Below are positions 2-63,074 of a DNA stretch of 64,000 bases, in pieces (the stretch's first letter is position 1; every line of letters begins with the position of its first letter). Source of the stretch: an uncultured Actinomycetes bacterium. GTDB taxonomy: Bacteria; Actinomycetota; UBA4738; HRBIN12. The notes beneath the pieces were generated by a model. That model was not told the origin of the DNA and did no database searches. It was given only the letters and a program-made list of their open reading frames with translations. Location of the stretch: assembly GCA_963780015.1 (NCBI GenBank), contig CAWAAO010000014.1, positions 269,336 through 333,335 of the forward strand, given 5' to 3'. The translations under genes and the position numbers were made by a program.

Positions 2-925
2 ATCGCCTTCGACCGGGCGCTCGTTGCGACGGGGGTGCGCAACCGCGTCCTCGACGTGCCCGGCGCGCACCTTCCGGGCATCTTCCAGTTGCGAACGGTC
101 GGCGACGCCGACGCGATCCATCGGGCGGCGGTGGATGCGCGGCAGGCCGTCGTGATCGGCATGGGCTTCGTGGGTGCGGAGGTGGCGTCGTCGCTGCGCC
201 AGTTGGGACTCGAGGTCACCGTCGTCGAGCTGTTCGAAACCGCGCTCTACCGGGTGTTGGGCTCCCGACTCGGCCGGATCCTCGAGGCCATCCACCGCGA
301 TCACGGGGTCGCGCTCCACTTCCAGGACTCGGTCGAGCGCTTCGAGGGCTCGGTCGCCGTGGAGCGGGTGATCACGCGCAAAGGCCAGATCCTCGAAGCC
401 GATCTCGTGGTGGTGGGGGTGGGGACACAGCCCAACGCCGAGGTCATGGGCACGGAGGGGATCGCCGCCAACGGTGGCATCCGCGCGACCGCCTCCCTCG
501 AGACGCCGATCCCGGGCATCTTCACCGCAGGCGACGTCGCGTCGCACCAGCACCCGGTGTTCGGCGAGGTACGGGTGGAGCATTTCGACAATGCGATCAA
601 GATGGGCGTTCACGTCGCACGCGGGATGCTCGGCGCCGCCCGGGATTTCGACGACCCGCACTGGTTCTGGTCGGACCAATGGGAGCACCAGATCCAGATG
701 GCAGGCGTCGAGACGACCGGCGAGATGGTCGTGCGCGGGTCGCTTGCTGCTCGCTCGTTCGCGGCGTTCTTCCTCGACGAGCGGAGCGTCCTGCGCGCCT
801 GCGTCAGCATCGACTGGAAGCGCGACTGCCGGCGGGCGCTGCGCCTGATCCGTCAACAGGCGCGGGTGGACCCCGCGGCGCTCGCGGATCCGGACGTCGA
901 TCTGCGGACGATCGCACCCGCGTGA
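2..925 (+). CDS. FAD/NAD(P)-dependent oxidoreductase, ferredoxin/rubredoxin-reductase type (5' end outside window)
   Basis: Frame is open from the window edge and continuous with track ORF 35..925. Has dinucleotide-binding motif VVIGMGFVGAEVA plus TAGDVA and RVEHFDNA motifs typical of this family. Confidence 0.75.
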   Translation: MAFDRALVATGVRNRVLDVPGAHLPGIFQLRTVGDADAIHRAAVDARQAVVIGMGFVGAEVASSLRQLGLEVTVVELFETALYRVLGSRLGRILEAIHRDHGVALHFQDSVERFEGSVAVERVITRKGQILEADLVVVGVGTQPNAEVMGTEGIAANGGIRATASLETPIPGIFTAGDVASHQHPVFGEVRVEHFDNAIKMGVHVARGMLGAARDFDDPHWFWSDQWEHQIQMAGVETTGEMVVRGSLAARSFAAFFLDERSVLRACVSIDWKRDCRRALRLIRQQARVDPAALADPDVDLRTIAPA

Positions 926-51694: not shown

Positions 51695-52213
51695 GTGGAC
51701 GAGCCGACGGTGACCGTCGGCAGGATCGCCAAGCCCCACGGTGTCCGCGGGGAGCTGTCCGTGCAGAACCGCTCGGACAACCCCGAACGCTGGGTGCCGG
51801 GCTCCAGAGTGTTCGACGAGACCGGACGGGTGTACACGGTGCGCTCCGCGCGCCCGCACGGCGAACGATTGCTCGTCACGTTCGAGGAGATCGGCGATCG
51901 CACCGCCGCCGAGGCGGTCGCGGGGACCGAGCTCCTCATCCCGGAATCCTGGTTGCCGGAGCTGCCCGAGGGGCAATGGTGGTCCCACCACGTGGAGGGC
52001 TTCCAGGTGACGACGGAGTCCGGGCGCGCGCTCGGGACGATCGAAGAGGTGCTCCCGTATCCGGCACAGGACCTCTGGCGCGTCGTCGCCGACGACGGGA
52101 CCGAGACCCTGATCCCCGCCGCAGAGGAGCTCGTCGTGTCGGTGGACATCGGCGCCGGTCACGCCGTCGTGCGGGACCTTCCCGGGCTGACGGCCCCCGA
52201 GGAGACGGGCTAG
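51695..52213 (+). CDS. rimM: 16S rRNA processing protein RimM
   Basis: GTG 51695. VGRIAKPHGVRGEL motif and a PRC-barrel C-terminal part. Confidence 0.85.
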   Translation: MDEPTVTVGRIAKPHGVRGELSVQNRSDNPERWVPGSRVFDETGRVYTVRSARPHGERLLVTFEEIGDRTAAEAVAGTELLIPESWLPELPEGQWWSHHVEGFQVTTESGRALGTIEEVLPYPAQDLWRVVADDGTETLIPAAEELVVSVDIGAGHAVVRDLPGLTAPEETG

Positions 52214-52917
52214 AGCCCGGCGATCTTCGCCAGCTGCGCCGGCTTCTTCAGGATGTAGCGCTGGCCGTCACGCTGCACGAGGCCGCGGCGCTGGAAGTCG
52301 GCGACGATCCTCGTCACGTTCTCGCGGCTGCCGCCGCACAGGCTCGCGAGGTCGGCGTGCGTGAGCGCGGGAACCGCCGTCCCGGCGTCGGGAAGATCCT
52401 CGAGCGAGGAGGTGCCCATCTGGAGCAGCCGTTTGGCCACGCGGCCCTTCAGATCGAGGTACAGCAGATCGTCGGCGAAGGCCTGGTGCTCCTGGATCTG
52501 CCGCGCGAGGGCCGCCAGGAGTTGGCGGGCGGCCTCCGGCTGGCTCGTGATGAACTCGACGAAGTCCTCGCCGGGGGTGGTCCAGACGTCGGTGTCTTCC
52601 AGCGTCAGCAGGTCGGCGCCGCGGGGGAGGTTCCCGAGCACGCCGAGCTCGCCGAGGAACTGCGGCGTGTCGACCGACGCGTGCAGGATCCGCGCGCCGG
52701 TCGGGGAGAAGGAGCTGATCTCGATCCGCCCGTCCACCAGGAAGTAGACCTCGGGCGACGGGTCGCCCTGGTGGCAGATGTAGGTGCCGCGGCGGAAGCG
52801 TCTGACCGAGCCCAGGGCCGCGAGCCCTTCGACCGCCTTCTTGGGGACCCCTTGCAGCACCGGGCTGGACGCCATGGCGACGATCAGCCCGGCGGCGGCG
52901 GCGACGGTGGGAGACAT
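52210..52917 (-). CDS. Crp/Fnr family cyclic-nucleotide-binding transcriptional regulator
   Basis: Intact 235 aa. The cNMP-binding cassette is FLGELGVLGNLPRGAD. The HTH recognition helix SRENVTRIVADF keeps the R-E-x-x-x-R triad. Confidence 0.85.
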   Translation of the reverse strand: MSPTVAAAAGLIVAMASSPVLQGVPKKAVEGLAALGSVRRFRRGTYICHQGDPSPEVYFLVDGRIEISSFSPTGARILHASVDTPQFLGELGVLGNLPRGADLLTLEDTDVWTTPGEDFVEFITSQPEAARQLLAALARQIQEHQAFADDLLYLDLKGRVAKRLLQMGTSSLEDLPDAGTAVPALTHADLASLCGGSRENVTRIVADFQRRGLVQRDGQRYILKKPAQLAKIAGL

Positions 52918-52964: not shown

Positions 52965-52991
52965 AGAGCCCGGGCCGAAGGCCCGGGCTCT
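52965..52991 (-). terminator. hairpin after small basic ORF A
   Basis: AGAGCCCGGGC-cgaag-GCCCGGGCTCT, an 11-bp stem. It shares its core with the hairpin at 53333-53362. Confidence 0.4.
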
Positions 52992-53015: not shown

Positions 53016-53168
53016 TCAGGACTTCTTGGCGTTGATCCGCCGCGTGCTGGACTTCCTCGCCGCCTTCTTGTGCAGGATGCGACGGGAGCTGGTCTTCTCG
53101 GTCTTGCGGGCGCCCGCGGCCTTCTCGTCCTTCTCGGGCTGCTTCGGCTCGATCTTCTTGTCGGCCAT
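53016..53168 (-). CDS. small basic protein A (50 aa), not in ORF track
   Basis: ATG is preceded by GAGAGGAAGGGA. Translation: MADKKIEPKQPEKDEKAAGARKTEKTSSRRILHKKAARKSSTRRINAKKS. High GC3. Followed by a hairpin. It has a paralog at 53387-53536. Confidence 0.55.
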   Translation of the reverse strand: MADKKIEPKQPEKDEKAAGARKTEKTSSRRILHKKAARKSSTRRINAKKS

Positions 53169-53245: not shown

Positions 53246-53307
53246 GGTATCGGAGGTCACATCGAGGGCGTGCTGTCTGTCACCGCCTCGGTGTGACGGG
53301 CGTCACG
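53246..53307 (-). promoter_or_regulatory. array of three CRP-like boxes upstream of small ORF A
   Basis: Plus-strand reading: GGTAT-CGGAGG-TCACA (53246-61), CGTGC-TGTCTG-TCACC (53269-84) and TGTGA-CGGGCG-TCACG (53292-307). Centres are 23 bp apart. The proximal box ends 21 nt before a GATGAT -10-like hexamer (53219-53224, minus strand). Confidence 0.5.
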
Positions 53308-53332: not shown

Positions 53333-53362
53333 CGAAACCCGGGCCGAAGGGCCCGGGTTTCG
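53333..53362 (-). terminator. hairpin after small basic ORF B, followed by a T-rich stretch
   Basis: CGAAACCCGGGCC-gaag-GGCCCGGGTTTCG, a 13-bp stem. In the transcribed orientation it is followed by TCGTTTCTC. Confidence 0.45.
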
Positions 53363-53386: not shown

Positions 53387-53536
53387 TCAGACCTTCTTGA
53401 CTGAGGTCTTGCGCGCTACCTTGCGGGCCACGACGCGGTTGGAGGTGCGCCGTGCGCTGGTCTTGGTCGCCTTGCGGGCGCCCGCGGCCGGCTCGTCGCT
53501 GGTCGGGAGCTTCGGCTGGATCTTCTTCTCGGCCAT
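53387..53536 (-). CDS. small basic protein B (49 aa), paralog of A, not in ORF track
   Basis: ATG is preceded by GAAGGAGAAG. Translation: MAEKKIQPKLPTSDEPAAGARKATKTSARRTSNRVVARKVARKTSVKKV. It shares MA-[DE]-KKI-x-PK ... DE-x-AAGARK ... KTS-x-RR with A. Confidence 0.55.
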   Translation of the reverse strand: MAEKKIQPKLPTSDEPAAGARKATKTSARRTSNRVVARKVARKTSVKKV

Positions 53537-53613: not shown

Positions 53614-53675
53614 CGTAGCGCAGGTCACATCGGGGCGGTGCTTTCCGTCACGGCCGAAGTGTGACGTACGTCACT
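53614..53675 (-). promoter_or_regulatory. array of three CRP-like boxes upstream of small ORF B
   Basis: CGTAG-CGCAGG-TCACA (53614-29), GGTGC-TTTCCG-TCACG (53637-52) and TGTGA-CGTACG-TCACT (53660-75; core palindrome GTGACGTACGTCAC). Spacing is 23 bp. The proximal box ends 21 nt before CATGAT (53587-53592, minus strand). The distal box overlaps the stop codon of the zinc-ribbon ORF. Confidence 0.5.
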
Positions 53676-53883
53676 CGTCGAGTTCGGGGAGGTCGATCGG
53701 ATCGGGACGCGGCGTGCACGCGCCGCAGAACAGCGCGTCCTCGACGACGAGCGCGCGGGTCATGTCTCCGCCCCGGTACAGCTCCAGTACATAGGGCCGC
53801 TCTTGGGCGTGGTCCTCACAGACGCCGCGGCCGCAGAAGCGGCACGAGCCGACCGCCGTCCGGCGGCAATGCCAACACACCAT
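53671..53883 (-). CDS. small zinc-ribbon protein (70 aa)
   Basis: Translation: MVCWHCRRTAVGSCRFCGRGVCEDH...FCGACTP (CxxC, CxxC, C..H, CxxC). The ATG lies 11 nt after the protease stop and is preceded by GGAGGA, consistent with translational coupling. Confidence 0.6.
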   Translation of the reverse strand: MVCWHCRRTAVGSCRFCGRGVCEDHAQERPYVLELYRGGDMTRALVVEDALFCGACTPRPDPIDLPELDE

Positions 53884-53893
53884 CGCGTCCTCC

Positions 53894-56183
53894 TCAGTGC
53901 TCCATGTTTCGGTCGGGTGTTCGCTCCGTCGCGCCACGACGGAACGTTTGTGCGATCACGCTGGCGAATCCCTCTCGGTCCAGCGCGAACACCCGCGCCG
54001 GCGTGTGCGCCGTGACGCTGGCGTTGCGGGGGGCGTCGGTCAGCAGCGCGATCTCGCCGAAGTGCTGGCCGGGCCCGAGCGTCGCGATCACCTCGCCGTC
54101 GCGATCGACGTCGACCTGGCCGGTGCCGAGCACGTAGAAGGTGTCGCCCGCCTCGCCCTGCGTGATCAGCCGCTCGCCCGGGGCGACGTTGCGCCAGGAT
54201 CCGTGCTCGAGCACGAGGGCGAGGTCGGCAGTCGACAGGGTCCGCAGCGGCGGCAGGGCTCGCAGCTCTGCGTAGGCCTGCATGGTCGGCGCGAAATCGG
54301 GCGCGTCGATGTCGTCGGCGAGCAGCCGATCGAACGACGCCTTGTCGACACGGAACAGGGTCGCCTCGCCTTCCGCTCGGGCCGTCGCCGCCCGGACGCC
54401 GGAGCCGATCAGGCCGAATTCCCCGAAGGCGTCGCCGCGACCGAGCGTGGTGATGATGCGCGTGTCGCCTTCGTCCGGATCCTCGTCCTCGATGTGGATC
54501 GTGCCGGACCGCACCACGTAGAACGCATCGGCGACGTCGCCTCGGCGAAACGCCGCCTGGCCGTCGCGCACCGTCACCAGCTCGATACGTCCCGCGAGGT
54601 CGGACAGCGCATCTTCGTCGAGGTCGTCGAACGCGGGGAGCGCGTCGATCAACGCGGCCGCCTCGACCCGCCAGGACCGTTGCACGCGGAACCGGATCCG
54701 GTCCCGGATCGACTTCAGTCGTTTGTAGATGCTGCGTGCCAGCGTGAGGAGACCTCGGATCAACGGCCCGATGAACACGAGGGCGAGGAGCAGCAGCAGG
54801 ATGCGCGAGCCGAGCCCGCCGTTCCACAGGCTCGAGATCAGCCCTCCGAAGATCTCCTGCCAGAAGAAGTAGGCGGTGTAGAAGGAGAAGATCGTGAACG
54901 CGATGCCGACGATCCCGTAGAACCCGAGGCCGAACTCCTGCAGGCTGAACCGCTCCCACCGCAGGATCTTGTGCCACAGATCGCCCTGGATGAAGTTGAG
55001 CGAGCGGCGACGCAGATCCGGCATCTGGATCAGGTCGGAGAAGATCCAGTAGCCGTCCAGCTCGAGCAGCGGGATCAGGTTCATGAAGATGATGAAGTAG
55101 TTGATCAGCGCGAAGCGATAGAGGAACGCGGCGAGGCCGCTGCCCGGCGTCGCAACGATCACGAGCGAGGCGACGCCGGCCAGGATCATCTCCGAGAACG
55201 GCCCCGCGAACGACTGCACGATCCGCTCACGGCGATCCATCATCAGGCCGTCGGAGGCGTCGACGAAGAACGCCGGCGAGCCGAAGAAGATGAAGAACCC
55301 CGCGCCGAGGACACGGCGCTTGTAGTGGATCAACGCCATCGCGTGCCCGAGCTCGTGCGCGAAGGTCAGGAACAGCCCGAGGGCGAGGAAGATCAGCGTC
55401 TCGCCCGGCGCGGCGTCGATCGACAGCTGATAGCGCCCCGATTGCTGCACGCCGATGAACGCGACAAGGCCGACCAGCGCGACGAGGGACCCGAGCACCA
55501 CCAGCACCGGACGGAAGAAGAGCTTCAGCCCTCCGTGGTACGCGCCCTCCACGAAGCCCTCGGCGCCCGCCCAGGAGATCCGCAGGTTCTTCGCGAAGTC
55601 GCGCAGCTTCCGCCGGCCGGCCGAGGCTCGATCGAGGTGCGTCTGTACGAGCGCCTGCACGTCCGGTCGCGCCGGATCGAGGAACCCGCCCTCGCGCAGC
55701 GCCACGATCAAACCGAGCACCGCGGCCGGGTCCAGATCGCCGGCCGCCTGGAGGTGATCGACGATCAGCTCCTGGGTGGTCTTGGTCCCGTCCATCTGCT
55801 CCATGAGCGTCGCTTCCCACGGTTGGAGCTCGAAGTGCAGGGCGTGGTCGGGGCGGGCGACGATGGCGAAGTCGTTGCCCCAGCGCATCGAGAATCGCTT
55901 GATCTCGGTGCCGGCCGCGAGCGTCGGCGCGAACGTCTCGGGGTCGAGCATCGCCGTGAGCTCGTCCCACAGCCCGGGTGTGTCCGCCGCGATCGTGGGA
56001 ACGGCCGCCAGCGCCTCTGCCAGGGCCGGGACGGGTGCCCGTTGCGTCGTTCCGCGCCCGCACGGCGGCCGCGACGAGCCCGGGCACGTGCAGCGCCTTC
56101 CGGCGGGCCGCGCGCTCGCGGATCGCGTCGACGCCGACGATCAGACCCGCGATCACCAGCGCGGCGAGGATCAGGTATTGCAT
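53894..56183 (-). CDS. site-2 protease (peptidase M50) fused to two C-terminal cyclic-nucleotide-binding domains; probable N-terminal extension across a +1 disruption near 56045
   Basis: HELGH lies within a TM helix and NLIPLLELDG is the second S2P motif. The two CAP-type cassettes are FGEFGLIGSGVRAATARA and FGEIALLTDAPRNASVTA. The uninterrupted part is 53894-55951. Upstream, ATG 56183 (SD GAGGGGGA) encodes the TM helix MQYLILAALVIAGLIVGV. The protease frame is open back to about 56120 with no start codon of its own. Confidence 0.75.
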
Positions 56184-56586: not shown

Positions 56587-57345
56587 GTGCGGATCGATGT
56601 CATCACGATCTTCCCGGGGCTGCTCGCGCCGTTCCTGACCGAGAGCCTGCTCGGCAAGGCGATCGCGGCGGGCTCGTCGACGTGCGGGTCCACGACCTGC
56701 GCGACTGGACGCAGGACCCGCATCGCAGCGTCGACGACGCCTCCTTCGGCGGCGGCCCCGGGATGGTGTTGAAGCCCGAGCCGCTGTTCGCTGCGGTCGA
56801 GTCGCTCGACCCCGACCGGGGTCGCGTGCTGGCCCTGTCGCCGGCGGGGCGACGGCTGGACCAGACGCCTCGTCGCCGAGCTGGCTTCCGAGCCGCACCT
56901 CACGCTCCTGTGCGGGCGCTACGAGGGGTTCGACGAGCGCGTGATCGACGGCCTGCCCGCAGAGGAGGTCTCGATCGGCGACTACGTGCTCGCCGGCGGT
57001 GAGCTCCCGGCGTTGGTGCTCATCGAGGCCGTGACCAGGCTGCTCCCGGGCGTGATCGGCAGCGACGAATCGCACGCGCGAGACTCGTTCAGCGAGCCGG
57101 GACTGCTCGACCACCCGCACTACACGCGCCCGCAGGAATTCCGCGGCATGCGGGTCCCGGACGTGCTCGACCTCGGGGATCACGCCGCGATCGAGGCGTG
57201 GCGCGTCGAGGCGCGCGCGCGCCAAGACCCGGCGCAATCGCCCCGATCTGTCGAGCTCCGCTCGGTCCCCGCTCGCGACGCGCGGCAGCGGACGGCAACG
57301 CGGGCGCCCGGAGCCCGCTGGTACAATCGCCAACCGTTGCCATGA
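56587..57345 (+). CDS. trmD: tRNA (guanine37-N1)-methyltransferase, about four frame disruptions (near 56672, 56870, 57213, 57250)
   Basis: [50 protein letters not shown] and RRNRPDL are colinear across alternating frames. The stop overlaps the rplS ATG (ATGA). Confidence 0.8.
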
Positions 57346-59580: not shown

Positions 59581-59967
59581 ATGTCAGACCGCGGTCCTAG
59601 CCTCTGCGCGATGGATCAGCGTGCCGACGTCGGCCGTCGCGGCGAGTTGGCGACGGAGACGCGCTACGTGGCGCGGGGGTACCGCGTCGTCGCCCGGAAC
59701 TGGCGGTGCCGCCTCGGCGAGCTCGACCTCGTGCTCGCCCGCGGCCCCGCGCTCGTCTTCTGCGAGGTCAAGACGCGCCGAGGCTCGCGTTTCGGCGGCG
59801 GGTTCGAGGCGGTGGACGTCCGCAAGCGGCAGAAGGTGCGCGCGCTCGCCGAGGTCTTCCTGCTGCAGACCAAGGCGTCGCCGGCAGCGGTGCGGTTCGA
59901 CGTCGCCAGCGTCTGGCTCAAGCCCGACGGCTCAGCGTCGGTCGAGCTCTTCGAGGACGCCTTCTGA
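59581..59967 (+). CDS. yraN: YraN family endonuclease (UPF0102)
   Basis: GRRGELATETRYVARGYRVVARNWRCRLGELDLV and CEVKTR motifs. ATG 59611 is an alternative start. Confidence 0.75.
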   Translation: MSDRGPSLCAMDQRADVGRRGELATETRYVARGYRVVARNWRCRLGELDLVLARGPALVFCEVKTRRGSRFGGGFEAVDVRKRQKVRALAEVFLLQTKASPAAVRFDVASVWLKPDGSASVELFEDAF

Positions 59968-61461
59968 CAATCGACGAAGCGCCGCGATCAATGCGTCGAC
60001 CTCGGCGCGTGTCGACAGGTAGTTCACGATCCCGGCGCGCAGGTACGTGCGGCCTCGAAGCGTCGTGACGCTCACCCACGCGGTGCCGTCGACCTCCAGC
60101 GCCCGCTGCAGCGCGTTCTCGTAGGCGTCGAGGTCGATGTCGTCCGATGCCGCCGGGCCGGGCAGGTGTCGGAAGCACACGACCGACAGCTCCGGTTCGC
60201 ACGCGAGATCGAAGTCCGGTGCCGTCCGAAGCGTCTCGGCCAGGTAGGCGGCCAGGTCGTCGTTGTGCTCCACCAGACCGCCGAGGCCCTCGGTGCCCAG
60301 ATGCTGCCAGCTCATCCAGAGCTTCAGCGCACGGAACCGTCGCGTGCCTTCGATCGAGTACTCGTAGTAGTTCAGCGGCGCGTCCTCCGGACGGTTCGAC
60401 GCGTAGTACTCGGGCGCACGATGGAACGTGTCGAGGAGGTCCTGGCGGCGACGCACGACGAGGGCGCCGATGTCGTAGGCCTGGAAGAACCACTTGTGTG
60501 GATCGACCGTGACCGAGTCGGCCAGCTCGAGGCCGGGCACCCGCTCGGCATCGCGTGCCGACAGCCTGGCGGCGCCCCCGTAGGCGGCGTCCACGTGGAG
60601 CCAGCAGCCCTCGGAGGCGGCCAGCCGGGCGAGCGCCGGGACATCGTCGACCGATCCCGTGTTCGTCGAGCCGGCGACGGCGCAGATGGCAAGCGGGATC
60701 AGCCCCGAGGCGCGATCGGCCGCGATGGCGGCGGCGACGGGCTCGGCCCGGAGTCGGAACGTCTCGTCGGAGGCCACCACGCGCAACGTGTCCTCCGGGA
60801 ACCCGAGGATGTCGAGCCCACGCCCCACCGAGAAGTGCGTCTGGTCGCTCGCGTACACGCGCACGCCGTCCAGATCGGCACCGCGCGGGGCGCGATCCAG
60901 ACCGCGCAGCGTCCGCAGGTGCACCTCGCGAGCCACGGCGAGCGCCATGAGGTTGGCCATGGCGCCGCCGCTGGTCAGCACGCCCCATGCGCCCGGCGGC
61001 AACCCGACGAGGTCGCAGAGCCAGCGGGTGACCTCCTCCTCGACGAACGCGCCGACCGGTCCCGCGTGCCAGACGTCGACCCCTTGTTGGAGCCACTGGC
61101 CGAGCACCTCGCCGCCGACGGACATCGCGAGCGGCGGCGGCGTGAAGTAGCTGAACGCGGCCGGGTGCTGCGCGTTGAAGGTCATCGGCGCGACGCGTTC
61201 CCGGAACGTGCGAAGCACGTCGTCGGCGGGCACGCCGCGCCCGGGCATGCTCGCGGGCGATCCGTCGGGGCCGAAGAAACGCCGCCGCGAATCCGGGTAG
61301 CTGTCGGGATGGATCGGCCGGTCCATCGCGCGGTCGAACAGCCAGTCGAGCGCCTCGGTCGTGATCGCGTCGGCGAACCGCGCAAGCGCCTCCCGGGCGC
61401 CCGGCGCCGTCAGATCCAACAGCTCCGGGTCGGGGACCCGCGGCAGATCGTCACGCGGCAC
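59932..61461 (-). CDS. PLP-dependent group II amino-acid decarboxylase family
   Basis: Intact 509 aa. HVDAAYGGAA and TVDPHKWFF (PLP-lysine) motifs. Confidence 0.8.
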   Translation of the reverse strand: MPRDDLPRVPDPELLDLTAPGAREALARFADAITTEALDWLFDRAMDRPIHPDSYPDSRRRFFGPDGSPASMPGRGVPADDVLRTFRERVAPMTFNAQHPAAFSYFTPPPLAMSVGGEVLGQWLQQGVDVWHAGPVGAFVEEEVTRWLCDLVGLPPGAWGVLTSGGAMANLMALAVAREVHLRTLRGLDRAPRGADLDGVRVYASDQTHFSVGRGLDILGFPEDTLRVVASDETFRLRAEPVAAAIAADRASGLIPLAICAVAGSTNTGSVDDVPALARLAASEGCWLHVDAAYGGAARLSARDAERVPGLELADSVTVDPHKWFFQAYDIGALVVRRRQDLLDTFHRAPEYYASNRPEDAPLNYYEYSIEGTRRFRALKLWMSWQHLGTEGLGGLVEHNDDLAAYLAETLRTAPDFDLACEPELSVVCFRHLPGPAASDDIDLDAYENALQRALEVDGTAWVSVTTLRGRTYLRAGIVNYLSTRAEVDALIAALRRLSEGVLEELDRR

Positions 61462-61522
61462 GCCGGGAGGCTACTAGGGGGCGGCCGTGACATCCGTCAC
61501 CGTCGACGGGGCGACCGCGGCC

Positions 61523-61535: not shown

Positions 61536-63074
61536 ATGTACGGACGGGTGCGTGGCATGACGGTCCTCGGCGTGGGCGGGCACCCGGTGACCGTCGAGGC
61601 CTTCGTCGGCCGCGGGTTGCCCGCGCTCACCCTCACCGGTCTTCCCGGCGCGGCCGTGGCCGATGCCCGCGATCGGATCCGTCCCGCGGTGGAGCACGCG
61701 GGCTTGGAGTGGCCGTTGCGCCGGGTCGTGGTCAACCTCGCGCCCGGCAACCTGCGCAAGGAGGGCGCCGGCCTCGATCTCCCGATCGCCGCGAGTGTGC
61801 TGGTGGCCACCGGGCAGGTGCCGGGGGCGGCCGTCGCCGGCGCCGTGTTCTTCGGGGAACTGTCGTTGAAGGGGGAGGTGCTGCCGACGCCCGGCGTCCT
61901 GTCGGTCGCGATCGCCGCCGTACAGAGCGGCTCGCCGGTCGTCGTGGTGCCGAAGGCCAACGCCGTCGAAGCCGCGCACGTCGAGGGGATCCACGTGGTC
62001 GCCGTGTCGTCGCTCGAACAGGTGGTGATGTTCCTGCGTGGCACCTGGCACGCGCCCGAGATCGAGGTCGAGGCGGGCGCGGGGTGGCAGTCGCCGGCCG
62101 CCGATCTCGCCGATGTGCGCGGGCAAGCCCAGGCGCGCAGGGCGCTCGAGGTGGCCGCCGCCGGCGGGCACAACCTCCTGCTCGTCGGCTCGCCCGGCGC
62201 AGGCAAGACGATGCTCGCCCGCCGGCTCGCGTCGATCTTGCCCGAGCTCACCCGTGACGAAGCGCTCGAAGCCACGCAGTTGCATTCGGTGGCGGGGTTG
62301 CTGGCGGGCCGCGGTCTGCTGCGGCAGCGCCCCTTCCGATCGCCGCACCATTCGATCAGCACCGTCGGGCTGCTCGGGGGCGGCTCGAGCGTGTTGCGCC
62401 CGGGGGAGGCGAGTCTCGCCCACCGCGGCGTGCTCTTCCTGGACGAGCTGACCGAGTTCCGACGCGACGCGATCGAGTCGCTCCGCCAGCCGCTCGAGGA
62501 CGGGTGCGTCGTCGTGACGCGCGCCAGCGGGTCGGTGACCTTTCCCGCGCGATTCACGCTGGTGGCGGCGGCCAACCCGTGTCCGTGCGGTTTCCGCGAC
62601 GACCCGGTGCGCGTGTGCGGGTGTCGCGACGACCAGCGTGCGCGCTACATGGGCAAGCTCTCGGGTCCGCTGCTGGATCGCATCGATCTGCGTGTGCGGG
62701 TGCCTCGGCTCACGAAGCACGAGCTCCTCGGTGCCGCGGGCGGCGAGCCCTCGGCCGTCGTGCGGGCGCGCGTGCTGGACGCCCGCGACCGACAGCTGCA
62801 CCGGTACCGCGACACCGTCTGGACGTGCAACGCCCATCTCCCGGGGCCGCTCGCGCGCCGGCAGGCGTCGTTGACCGATGAGGCGGAGCACCTGCTGGGT
62901 GACGCGGTCGAGGCCTCGGCGTTGTCGGGGCGAGGGTTCGACCGGGTGATCAAGGTCGGTCGCACCATCGCGGACATGGAGGGAGTCGCCCGGGTCGATG
63001 TGGGTCACATCGCCGAGGCGCTGTCCTACCGAGAGGCGTTCGAGCCGGAGGAGCGGACGGCGCGTGCGAGCTGA
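61536..63074 (+). CDS. comM: YifB/ComM family Mg-chelatase-like AAA+ ATPase
   Basis: Intact 512 aa. Lon-like N-terminal domain, Walker A GSPGAGKTMLA and VLFLDELTEF. Confidence 0.9.
   Translation: MYGRVRGMTVLGVGGHPVTVEAFVGRGLPALTLTGLPGAAVADARDRIRPAVEHAGLEWPLRRVVVNLAPGNLRKEGAGLDLPIAASVLVATGQVPGAAVAGAVFFGELSLKGEVLPTPGVLSVAIAAVQSGSPVVVVPKANAVEAAHVEGIHVVAVSSLEQVVMFLRGTWHAPEIEVEAGAGWQSPAADLADVRGQAQARRALEVAAAGGHNLLLVGSPGAGKTMLARRLASILPELTRDEALEATQLHSVAGLLAGRGLLRQRPFRSPHHSISTVGLLGGGSSVLRPGEASLAHRGVLFLDELTEFRRDAIESLRQPLEDGCVVVTRASGSVTFPARFTLVAAANPCPCGFRDDPVRVCGCRDDQRARYMGKLSGPLLDRIDLRVRVPRLTKHELLGAAGGEPSAVVRARVLDARDRQLHRYRDTVWTCNAHLPGPLARRQASLTDEAEHLLGDAVEASALSGRGFDRVIKVGRTIADMEGVARVDVGHIAEALSYREAFEPEERTARAS

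Follow-up and report, generated by a model that had tools for sequence, protein, structure and literature searches.

Control of site-2 proteases is known to come from an earlier site-1 cleavage, from PDZ domains or from a CBS domain that senses ATP. Those that are fused to a recognition element for peptides that are made on the ribosome and modified after translation (RiPP recognition element, RRE) are, to our knowledge, known only as leader peptidases of the daptide type. We examined a gene on the minus strand of a contig from an uncultured Actinomycetes bacterium (CAWAAO010000014.1 of assembly GCA_963780015.1), within a stretch of 64,000 nucleotides (64 kb) referred to below as the window. 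Its product is predicted to be a site-2 protease that carries an N-terminal RRE and, at its C-terminus, a tandem pair of cyclic-nucleotide-binding (cNMP-binding) domains. Comparison of related loci shows it to be the first gene of a conserved module, whose other predicted products are a 70-amino-acid (aa) Cys/His protein, one or two polycationic peptides encoded behind CRP-type operators, and a Crp regulator.

The closest described systems are the daptide clusters, whose discovery went by way of RRE domains found fused to the N-terminus of an intramembrane site-2 protease, and in which precursors ending in Thr are found with decarboxylase, aminotransferase and methyltransferase genes; the leader is removed by the site-2 peptidase (daptide paper). 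The order of RRE and then M50 domain is shared with the daptide protease MpaP/DapP (NCBIfam model NF041824, daptide intramembrane metalloprotease), and here too there are small peptide genes close by, whose products share a conserved N-terminal motif. The protease of our window differs in having an additional N-terminal transmembrane helix and two C-terminal cNMP-binding domains; genes of the MpaB, MpaC, MpaD and MpaM types are not adjacent, and the two peptides of the module, s1 and s2, lack the invariant C-terminal Thr (s1 ends in Val, s2 in Ser) and the hydrophobic core of daptide precursors. NF041824 matched residues 29-403 of the open reading frame (ORF) over model positions 18-374 of 379 (E 7e-45), with 153.7 bits against an equivalog cut-off of 300 bits. 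With this score, and with a zinc protein, basic peptides, Crp, rimM and trmD as neighbors, membership in the daptide family was rejected; judged by sequence, the RRE and M50 region is a homologue of the daptide leader peptidase and not a member of its family.

Other known systems share single features with this protease. The epipeptide maturation metalloprotease YydH/LiaK (NF058609) is also an M50 protein that matures a small ribosomal peptide, and its model matched residues 174-315 (E 3e-11); however the score was 43 bits against a cut-off of 225, no radical-SAM epimerase gene is near, and YydH/LiaK is without cNMP-binding domains, such that membership was rejected on the defining features. 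SpoIVFB and the other CBS-domain site-2 proteases have a cytoplasmic nucleotide-sensing module behind the M50 core, and are a plausible analogue for ligand gating, though here the sensor is a tandem cNMP pair, the RRE would recruit the substrate, and no pro-sigma substrate is present. An initial sequence-only reading of this DNA had already drawn the comparison with the CBS domain of SpoIVFB. It holds as an analogy, but Pfam gave no CBS match in the protease, whose C-terminus is two cNMP_binding domains, and SpoIVFB-type membership was rejected on that ground. The sensors align as a tandem with CNB-A/CNB-B of the PKA regulatory subunit and of PKG, and are here fused to a membrane protease instead of controlling a kinase; the first cassette reads PRAAT, as in PKA RI-alpha. 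Finally, TIGR03896 (cyc_nuc_ocin), a tandem cNMP-binding protein that is associated with transport of the bacteriocin type, is a precedent, by genome context only, for cyclic-nucleotide sensors linked to peptide maturation or export; its match is weak (47.7 bits, cut-off 161), and that family is a stand-alone soluble protein with no protease fusion. In the open-access literature searched, which did not take in the 2009 paper defining PF14407, no M50 protease is described as a fusion with cyclic-nucleotide-binding domains. Database names for relatives of the protease are domain names only, such as "CRP-like cAMP-binding protein/Zn-dependent protease".

Domain architecture of the protease

As read, the protease ORF occupies 53894..55951 (minus strand) and encodes 685 aa. 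The whole gene, once a frameshift near its 5′ end is repaired, occupies 53894..56183 (minus strand) and encodes about 762-763 aa, comprising the N-terminal transmembrane helix, the RRE, the M50 core and the two cNMP-binding domains. The GC fraction at third codon positions (GC3) is 0.91 in 53894..55951, and the composition scan found the codon-position GC pattern of a real gene.

The M50/site-2 protease membrane core (54644..55510, minus strand) was delimited with PF02163, with a motif and hydropathy scan and with the helices of an AlphaFold2 (AF2) model. Both catalytic motifs of a site-2 protease had been claimed from the letters of the sequence, with the expectation of a PF02163 match, and all were found: Peptidase_M50 scored 30.5 bits, above the Pfam cut-off of 27.2. 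HELGH (ORF residues 199-203, at 55357..55343) lies within the hydrophobic window 257-281 and the AF2 helix 259-286, and NLIPLLELDG (ORF residues 291-300, at 55081..55052) within the hydrophobic window 357-375 and the AF2 helix 349-385, both pairs of ranges in the numbering of the repaired protein; each motif is inside a hydrophobic 19-residue window as well as a predicted helix. In the same numbering, H276, E277 and H280 of HExxH and N368, P371, D376 and G377 of NxxPxxxxDG, whose Asp is the third zinc ligand, are invariant in an alignment of 102 homologues. The AF2 model of the repaired protease has a mean predicted local distance difference score (pLDDT) of 78, and shows a re-entrant beta-hairpin in the core, between the HExxH helix and the next helix. 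These features show the predicted gene product to be a polytopic site-2 (M50) zinc metalloprotease.

The C-terminal part holds a first cNMP-binding domain (54308..54625, minus strand; cassette FGEFGLIGSGVRAATARA) and a second (53933..54265, minus strand; cassette FGEIALLTDAPRNASVTA; best stretch ORF residues 587-668). Pfam matched cNMP_binding (PF00027) in two stretches, at E 3e-41 and 139.7 bits. The profile of the family, searched against PDB, matched tandem PKA-R/PKG sensor pairs over both domains (E 1e-63), and Foldseek with the full-length model returned PKA-R/PKG (E 1e-20) and no other kind of match. Among the 102 homologues, G587, E588 and R597 of the first cassette are invariant, as are G709, R719 and A721 of the second, where E710 is nearly so (at least 90%). 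The two CAP-type cassettes that the sequence-only reading had seen are confirmed by these searches, and the pair is predicted to consist of two intact cyclic-nucleotide-binding domains.

Since Foldseek with the full-length model gave PKA-R/PKG alone, the N-terminal domain (55673..55924, minus strand; ORF residues ~10-93) was modelled separately. AF2 predicts three strands (residues 16-20, 28-32 and 39-42) and three helices (44-51, 59-70 and 75-88), with pLDDT 82-92. This fold falls at the stretch that had been named PqqD/RRE-like by eye, the letters then quoted being strand 3 and helices 1-3. For the isolated domain, RRE-containing proteins fill nine of the first eleven PDB places in Foldseek, with probabilities of 0.91-1.0 and target TM scores of ~0.6-0.66 for the small RRE proteins; they include TbiB1 with bound leader (5v1u/5v1v; probability 1.0, TM score 0.64-0.66), PqqD (5sxy), lasso B1, LynD, TruD and TigE, with 6jx3, 4v1t and 4bs9 among the top entries. 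RREs are very divergent in sequence (daptide discovery paper). Because the Pfam PqqD family gave no match, the RRE call rests on fold and on NCBIfam homology; the earlier claim stands as to the fold, the Foldseek matches and the NF041824 homology, and fails as to the PF05402 profile. We name the domain a predicted RRE by its fold and by its homology to the family of RRE-bearing proteases.

Hydropathy, charge and the AF2 model point to a topology with the N-terminus outside, a transmembrane helix, a cytoplasmic RRE, a six-helix M50 core with re-entrant hairpin, and cytoplasmic tandem sensors, which are connected to the core by a strongly basic juxtamembrane helix. The placement of the membrane core fits the claimed active site, and all three parts, RRE, active site and sensors, would point to the cytoplasm.

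Frameshift at the 5′ end of the gene

Upstream of 55951 the same-frame translation looks coding yet has no start codon. The frame that begins at ATG 56183 encodes a transmembrane helix (MQYLILAALVIAGLIVGVDAI; hydropathy 2.49) and then the basic stretch RERAARRK (56097..56183, minus strand), with GC3 of 0.93-1.0; helix and basic stretch are common to the N-termini of the orthologues. That this helix joins the protease frame if one inserted base near 56045 is removed had been proposed, and the joining is confirmed. The frameshift interval is a variable linker at 56029..56049 (minus strand), located by the switch in GC3, by tblastn in two frames and by a gap in a DNA alignment. Near 56045 the third-position GC signal leaves the ATG-56183 frame for that of the protease, and tblastn with an orthologue of 91% identity (P0001) gave two frames, 56183-56049 and 56029-53897. 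In the DNA alignment with five close relatives, all intact, our window is 2 nucleotides (nt) shorter in the linker, which is equivalent to one extra base, so that "two bases missing" fits equally well as "one base inserted". The repaired 762-aa sequence as query gave 949 homologues; among the 120 listed, most have 755-770 aa and cover the query completely (100%). One homologue of 685 aa (P0006) was considered as a second case of the frameshift and rejected, as it is truncated by a contig end.

The frameshift is present in the sequence as given, and if genuine would make the gene a pseudogene, from which only the truncated 685-aa protein, or none, is made. Against this, both sides of the shift keep a coding signal, with GC3 above 0.9, and match an intact orthologue at 92% identity; the five close relatives are intact, and a sign of assembly indel errors lies only 400 nt away. 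The correct reading of trmD (56587-57345, plus strand) needs two compensating frameshifts, in three frame segments: one frame holds its N-terminal 29 aa and its C-terminal half, and a different frame the middle (~56675-56880). An essential neighbor that is doubly frameshifted argues for an indel-prone assembly. The frameshift at 56029-56049 is therefore most likely an assembly error, and the gene is probably intact in the organism; a pseudogene seems quite improbable to us.

A conserved module with a zinc protein, basic peptides and Crp

We scanned species-representative genomes and found 121, nearly all labelled as metagenome-assembled genomes of uncultured Actinomycetota or Actinomycetes; the module counts below are from 85 loci of uncultured Actinomycetota, except those for peptide genes, which are from 84. 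In the window the block sits between rimM and trmD, in inverted orientation, and the same arrangement is found beside orthologues of 91%, 73% and 55% identity. This setting, inside the ffh-rpsP-rimM / trmD-rplS-lepB core cluster, accounts for only 37 of the 85 loci, which argues that the module moves as a unit. A 70-aa gene directly follows that for the protease in 84 loci, and 80 loci have a Crp regulator. In our window the module ends with the gene for this Crp/Fnr-family regulator (52210..52917, minus strand), which has cNMP_binding and HTH_Crp_2 domains by Pfam and NCBIfam. Rfam found just two distant tRNAs, so no riboswitch or known RNA belongs to the module, and a scan for sigma-70 promoters gave no match. 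The domain architecture and the conservation of the module, taken alone, we hold to be close to certain. In several genomes (L038, L040, L041, L043 and others) the tblastn match to the protease extends over more than 3 kb, compared with ~2.3 kb.

RseP, SpoIVFB, Rip1 and other M50 proteases have their canonical role in classical regulated intramembrane proteolysis, and the active-site motifs of our protease do sit in transmembrane helices. Its substrate could then be a transmembrane regulator of the anti-sigma type encoded elsewhere, with a cNMP gate and with neighboring genes irrelevant to the substrate. However, there is no sigma, anti-sigma or transmembrane-protein gene in the module, and the four genes stay together across changed genomic locations. 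The protease also bears an RRE, and belongs with the leader-peptidase clade (the daptide and YydH/LiaK models) and not with the PDZ- or CBS-bearing group. We give this explanation little credence.

The 70-aa Cys/His protein (53671..53883, minus strand) is zinc-ribbon-like, with weak similarity to DUF2180 and C5HCH that is below cut-off. Its gene starts 11 nt past the protease stop codon, behind a Shine-Dalgarno sequence, GGAGGA. Eight Cys/His positions are conserved (C3, H5, C6, C14, C17, C22, H25, C53/C56), and the C-terminus is acidic (DLPELDE). The protein is more conserved than the protease (67-99% versus 46-94% identity across loci), and its gene is also found by protease relatives of 34-40% identity. 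It has 453 database clusters, all unnamed or "DUF2180 family", and its profile gave nothing significant against PDB, the best match being the C5HCH finger of NSD3 at E 0.085. Most likely the zinc protein is a stoichiometric accessory subunit, translationally coupled to the protease.

The main rival to our preferred reading, in which the basic peptides are the substrates, arises here: the 70-aa protein itself may be the ligand or substrate of the RRE-bearing protease, such as a soluble regulator that is degraded or freed when a cNMP signal comes, and the basic peptides would be just co-regulated by Crp. It would account for a gene that adjoins the protease in all but one of the loci and that surpasses it in conservation, for a pair kept even where the protease relatives are of only 34-40% identity and of differing lengths, and for stop and start codons that lie close with the Shine-Dalgarno sequence between. 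Yet coupling this tight and conservation this extreme are more what one expects of a subunit than of a substrate, and with its eight conserved Cys/His the protein looks like a compact folded zinc module, not a leader plus core. Moreover, peptide genes also accompany the module, even where the gene order is rearranged (L090, below). We regard this rival as unlikely, and the membrane-regulator, pseudogene and bacteriocin readings as less likely still.

Two small basic peptides follow the 70-aa protein: s1 (49 aa, MAEKKIQPKLPTSDEPAAGARKATKTSARRTSNRVVARKVARKTSVKKV; 53387..53536, minus strand; GC3 0.92) and its paralogue by alignment, s2 (50 aa; 53016..53168, minus strand; GC3 0.96). Each has a GC-rich hairpin on its 3′ side, that of s1 terminator-like (53335..53354, minus strand) and that of s2 at 52966..52990 (minus strand). 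Across loci, 78 of 84 have one or two such genes, often with a GTG start, encoding 40-70 aa; contig ends explain four of the six without, but not L049 and L081. The 83 distinct peptide sequences have a median length of 46 aa and net charges of +8 to +25, are without Cys, and have almost no aromatic or hydrophobic residues. Their first 11 residues are almost fixed, as M-A-[ED]-K-K-[IV]-x-P-K-x-[PA], and a second motif, AAGARK or AA[TA]RV[TS], is semi-conserved. The C-terminal tails are short basic tandem repeats that are specific to the genome, such as KRVAS, KAVHP, RQTK, KKLSH and KKTRVGA, with at least three copies in 42 of the 83 peptides. In the evolution of the peptides, repeat unit and copy number change (3-7 residues, up to 8 copies) while the N-terminus is kept, and in some genomes there are two paralogues, each of which has a CRP site and a hairpin to itself.

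A conserved N-terminus followed by hypervariable repeats resembles the organization of leader and core. A substrate encoded nearby had been suggested for the protease, and conserved small peptide genes with a leader-like N-terminus do lie downstream; that the protease cleaves their products we infer. The s1/s2 family has no significant Pfam or NCBIfam match. A similarity to HC2 histone-like proteins (E 0.0075, below cut-off) is compositional and was rejected. A profile search for the peptides found 296 clusters, of which all the named ones are "hypothetical protein".

The peptide genes are preceded by CRP-type palindromes. One, TGTGACGTACGTCACT (53660..53675, unstranded), lies ~125 nt upstream of s1, where it overlaps the 70-aa gene's stop codon, and related loci have the same site at the same place; the other, TGTGACGGGCGTCACG (53292..53307, unstranded), lies ~125 nt upstream of s2. 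The pattern GTGA-N6-TCAC occurs 4 times in the window where 0.86 are expected, and the sites upstream of s1 and s2 are the only ones there with at most one mismatch from TGTGA-N6-TCACA. All 78 of the peptide-bearing loci have GTGA-N6-TCAC upstream of a peptide gene, with the consensus TGTGAcgtacgTCACA, and of the 198 sites in 903 kb, 141 lie in the short stretch from the 70-aa gene to crp. The comparison strongly indicates that the peptide genes are under the control of a Crp-family protein, presumably that of the module itself.

A further GTGA-N6-TCAC lies at 61487-61500, between divergent genes for a YifB/ComM-like Mg-chelatase (59932..61461, minus strand) and a pyridoxal-dependent decarboxylase (61536..63074, plus strand). 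A site occupies the same intergenic position in L001 (729), L003 (672) and L005 (1103), and by this recurrence the local Crp regulon may extend to this gap.

We also examined the wider family. With the RRE and M50 part as query, phmmer returned 8,978 cluster representatives with E<=1e-3, of which 364 reach E<=1e-30, with lengths that group near 400-490, 700-760 and 1,030-1,170 aa. Two cNMP_binding domains are present in six of ten relatives checked (the six having 697-1,156 aa), and one of these six has an AhpC/TSA domain besides. Relatives of 1,030-1,170 aa are longer by ~400 residues, which lie between M50 core and sensors. In each of the four relatives whose loci were looked up (L088, L089, L090 and L091) the 70-aa Cys/His gene adjoins the protease gene or is near it, which points to protease and zinc protein as the invariant core of the system, with a peptide family that can change.

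The distant relatives L090 and L091 keep the logic of the module with other peptides. L090 has a CRP site, a Crp, and a peptide with a PKKITPE N-terminus and STRNTR repeats. In L091 the order is Crp, CRP site, two PF14407 ("Frankia_peptide") genes, protease, 70-aa gene and an ABC-transporter-like gene; PF14407 appears on a list of RiPP precursor families, and the arrangement suggests that the protease family serves several peptide families. Two further observations concern these loci. In L090 (9566-9991) an extra stand-alone cNMP-binding protein of 141 aa is encoded adjoining the 70-aa gene. In L091 (4269-10220) the protease relative has 1,102 aa, the PF14407 genes encode Nif11/NHLP-like N-terminal regions, and a 63-aa ORF that is coiled-coil-like lies near the 70-aa gene and the ABC-transporter-like gene.

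The L091 precursors and transporter-like gene bear on whether the module is an ordinary secondary-metabolite RiPP or bacteriocin cluster, making cationic antimicrobial peptides for export. A homologue of an RRE-bearing leader peptidase beside peptides with a conserved N-terminus and a hypervariable C-terminus would likewise suit such a cluster. In the clade of our protease, however, no modifying enzyme, exporter or immunity gene accompanies the module, and the loci that lie inside the core cluster of ffh to lepB are a setting that speaks against it. Both the predicted active site and the RRE face the cytoplasm, and the peptides are almost devoid of hydrophobic residues. An exported antimicrobial appears to us a poor prospect.

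Proposed mechanism and meaning

We propose that a cyclic nucleotide, most likely cAMP, would act on two levels. Through Crp bound at TGTGA-N6-TCACA it would set transcription of the small-peptide genes, and through the protease it would govern cleavage of their products. The N-terminus of the peptide (M-A-E/D-K-K-I-x-P-K-x-P) would dock on the RRE as an extra strand, in the manner of RiPP leaders. The tandem sensors, placed like the CBS domain of SpoIVFB or like a PKA regulatory subunit, would open or close access to the cytoplasm-facing active site, with the 70-aa zinc protein working as stoichiometric accessory subunit. The protease might then cut the peptide, plausibly near its second motif (AAGARK / AATRVTK), and cleavage would either free or destroy the hypervariable tail of basic tandem repeats.

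Several points weigh against this proposal. For the RRE, Foldseek reached modest E-values (2e-3 to 0.1), and Pfam found no PqqD (PF05402) in the protease at E<=0.1. The peptides are soluble and very hydrophilic, unlike known RiPP cores, and in this clade the module holds no modifying enzyme and no exporter. The frameshift could be genuine after all. Protease and 70-aa protein are the tightest pair, kept in L089 where no such peptide is seen, so the zinc protein could be the true ligand of the RRE. On balance we put slightly more trust than doubt in the mechanism as a whole, in which a cyclic nucleotide governs both peptide transcription by way of Crp and RRE-guided cleavage by the protease. 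A more specific version is offered only tentatively, and we lean against it: that this is a housekeeping second-messenger circuit, not a secondary-metabolite cluster, in which cAMP induces the peptides via Crp and at the same time licenses their RRE-guided cleavage by a cNMP-gated, intramembrane-type protease with its zinc-protein subunit.

All components of the module except Crp have been annotated as hypothetical or by domain name only, and our results suggest that together they form an undescribed, signal-controlled peptide-processing unit. It is widespread in uncultured Actinomycetota of soil and sediment, with related versions that use other peptide families. As a compact set of four gene families, in which candidate ligands and substrates are obvious, it is directly testable in a heterologous host. 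An RRE and two intact cyclic-nucleotide sensors in one protease would tie a universal second messenger directly to peptide processing. If the housekeeping circuit of the more specific version is real, it would connect cyclic-nucleotide signalling with site-2 proteolysis for the first time, and the peptides would be a new family of leader-dependent intracellular regulators, whose basic repeat tails evolve very fast and whose possible targets are nucleic acid, polyphosphate, the ribosome or the membrane.

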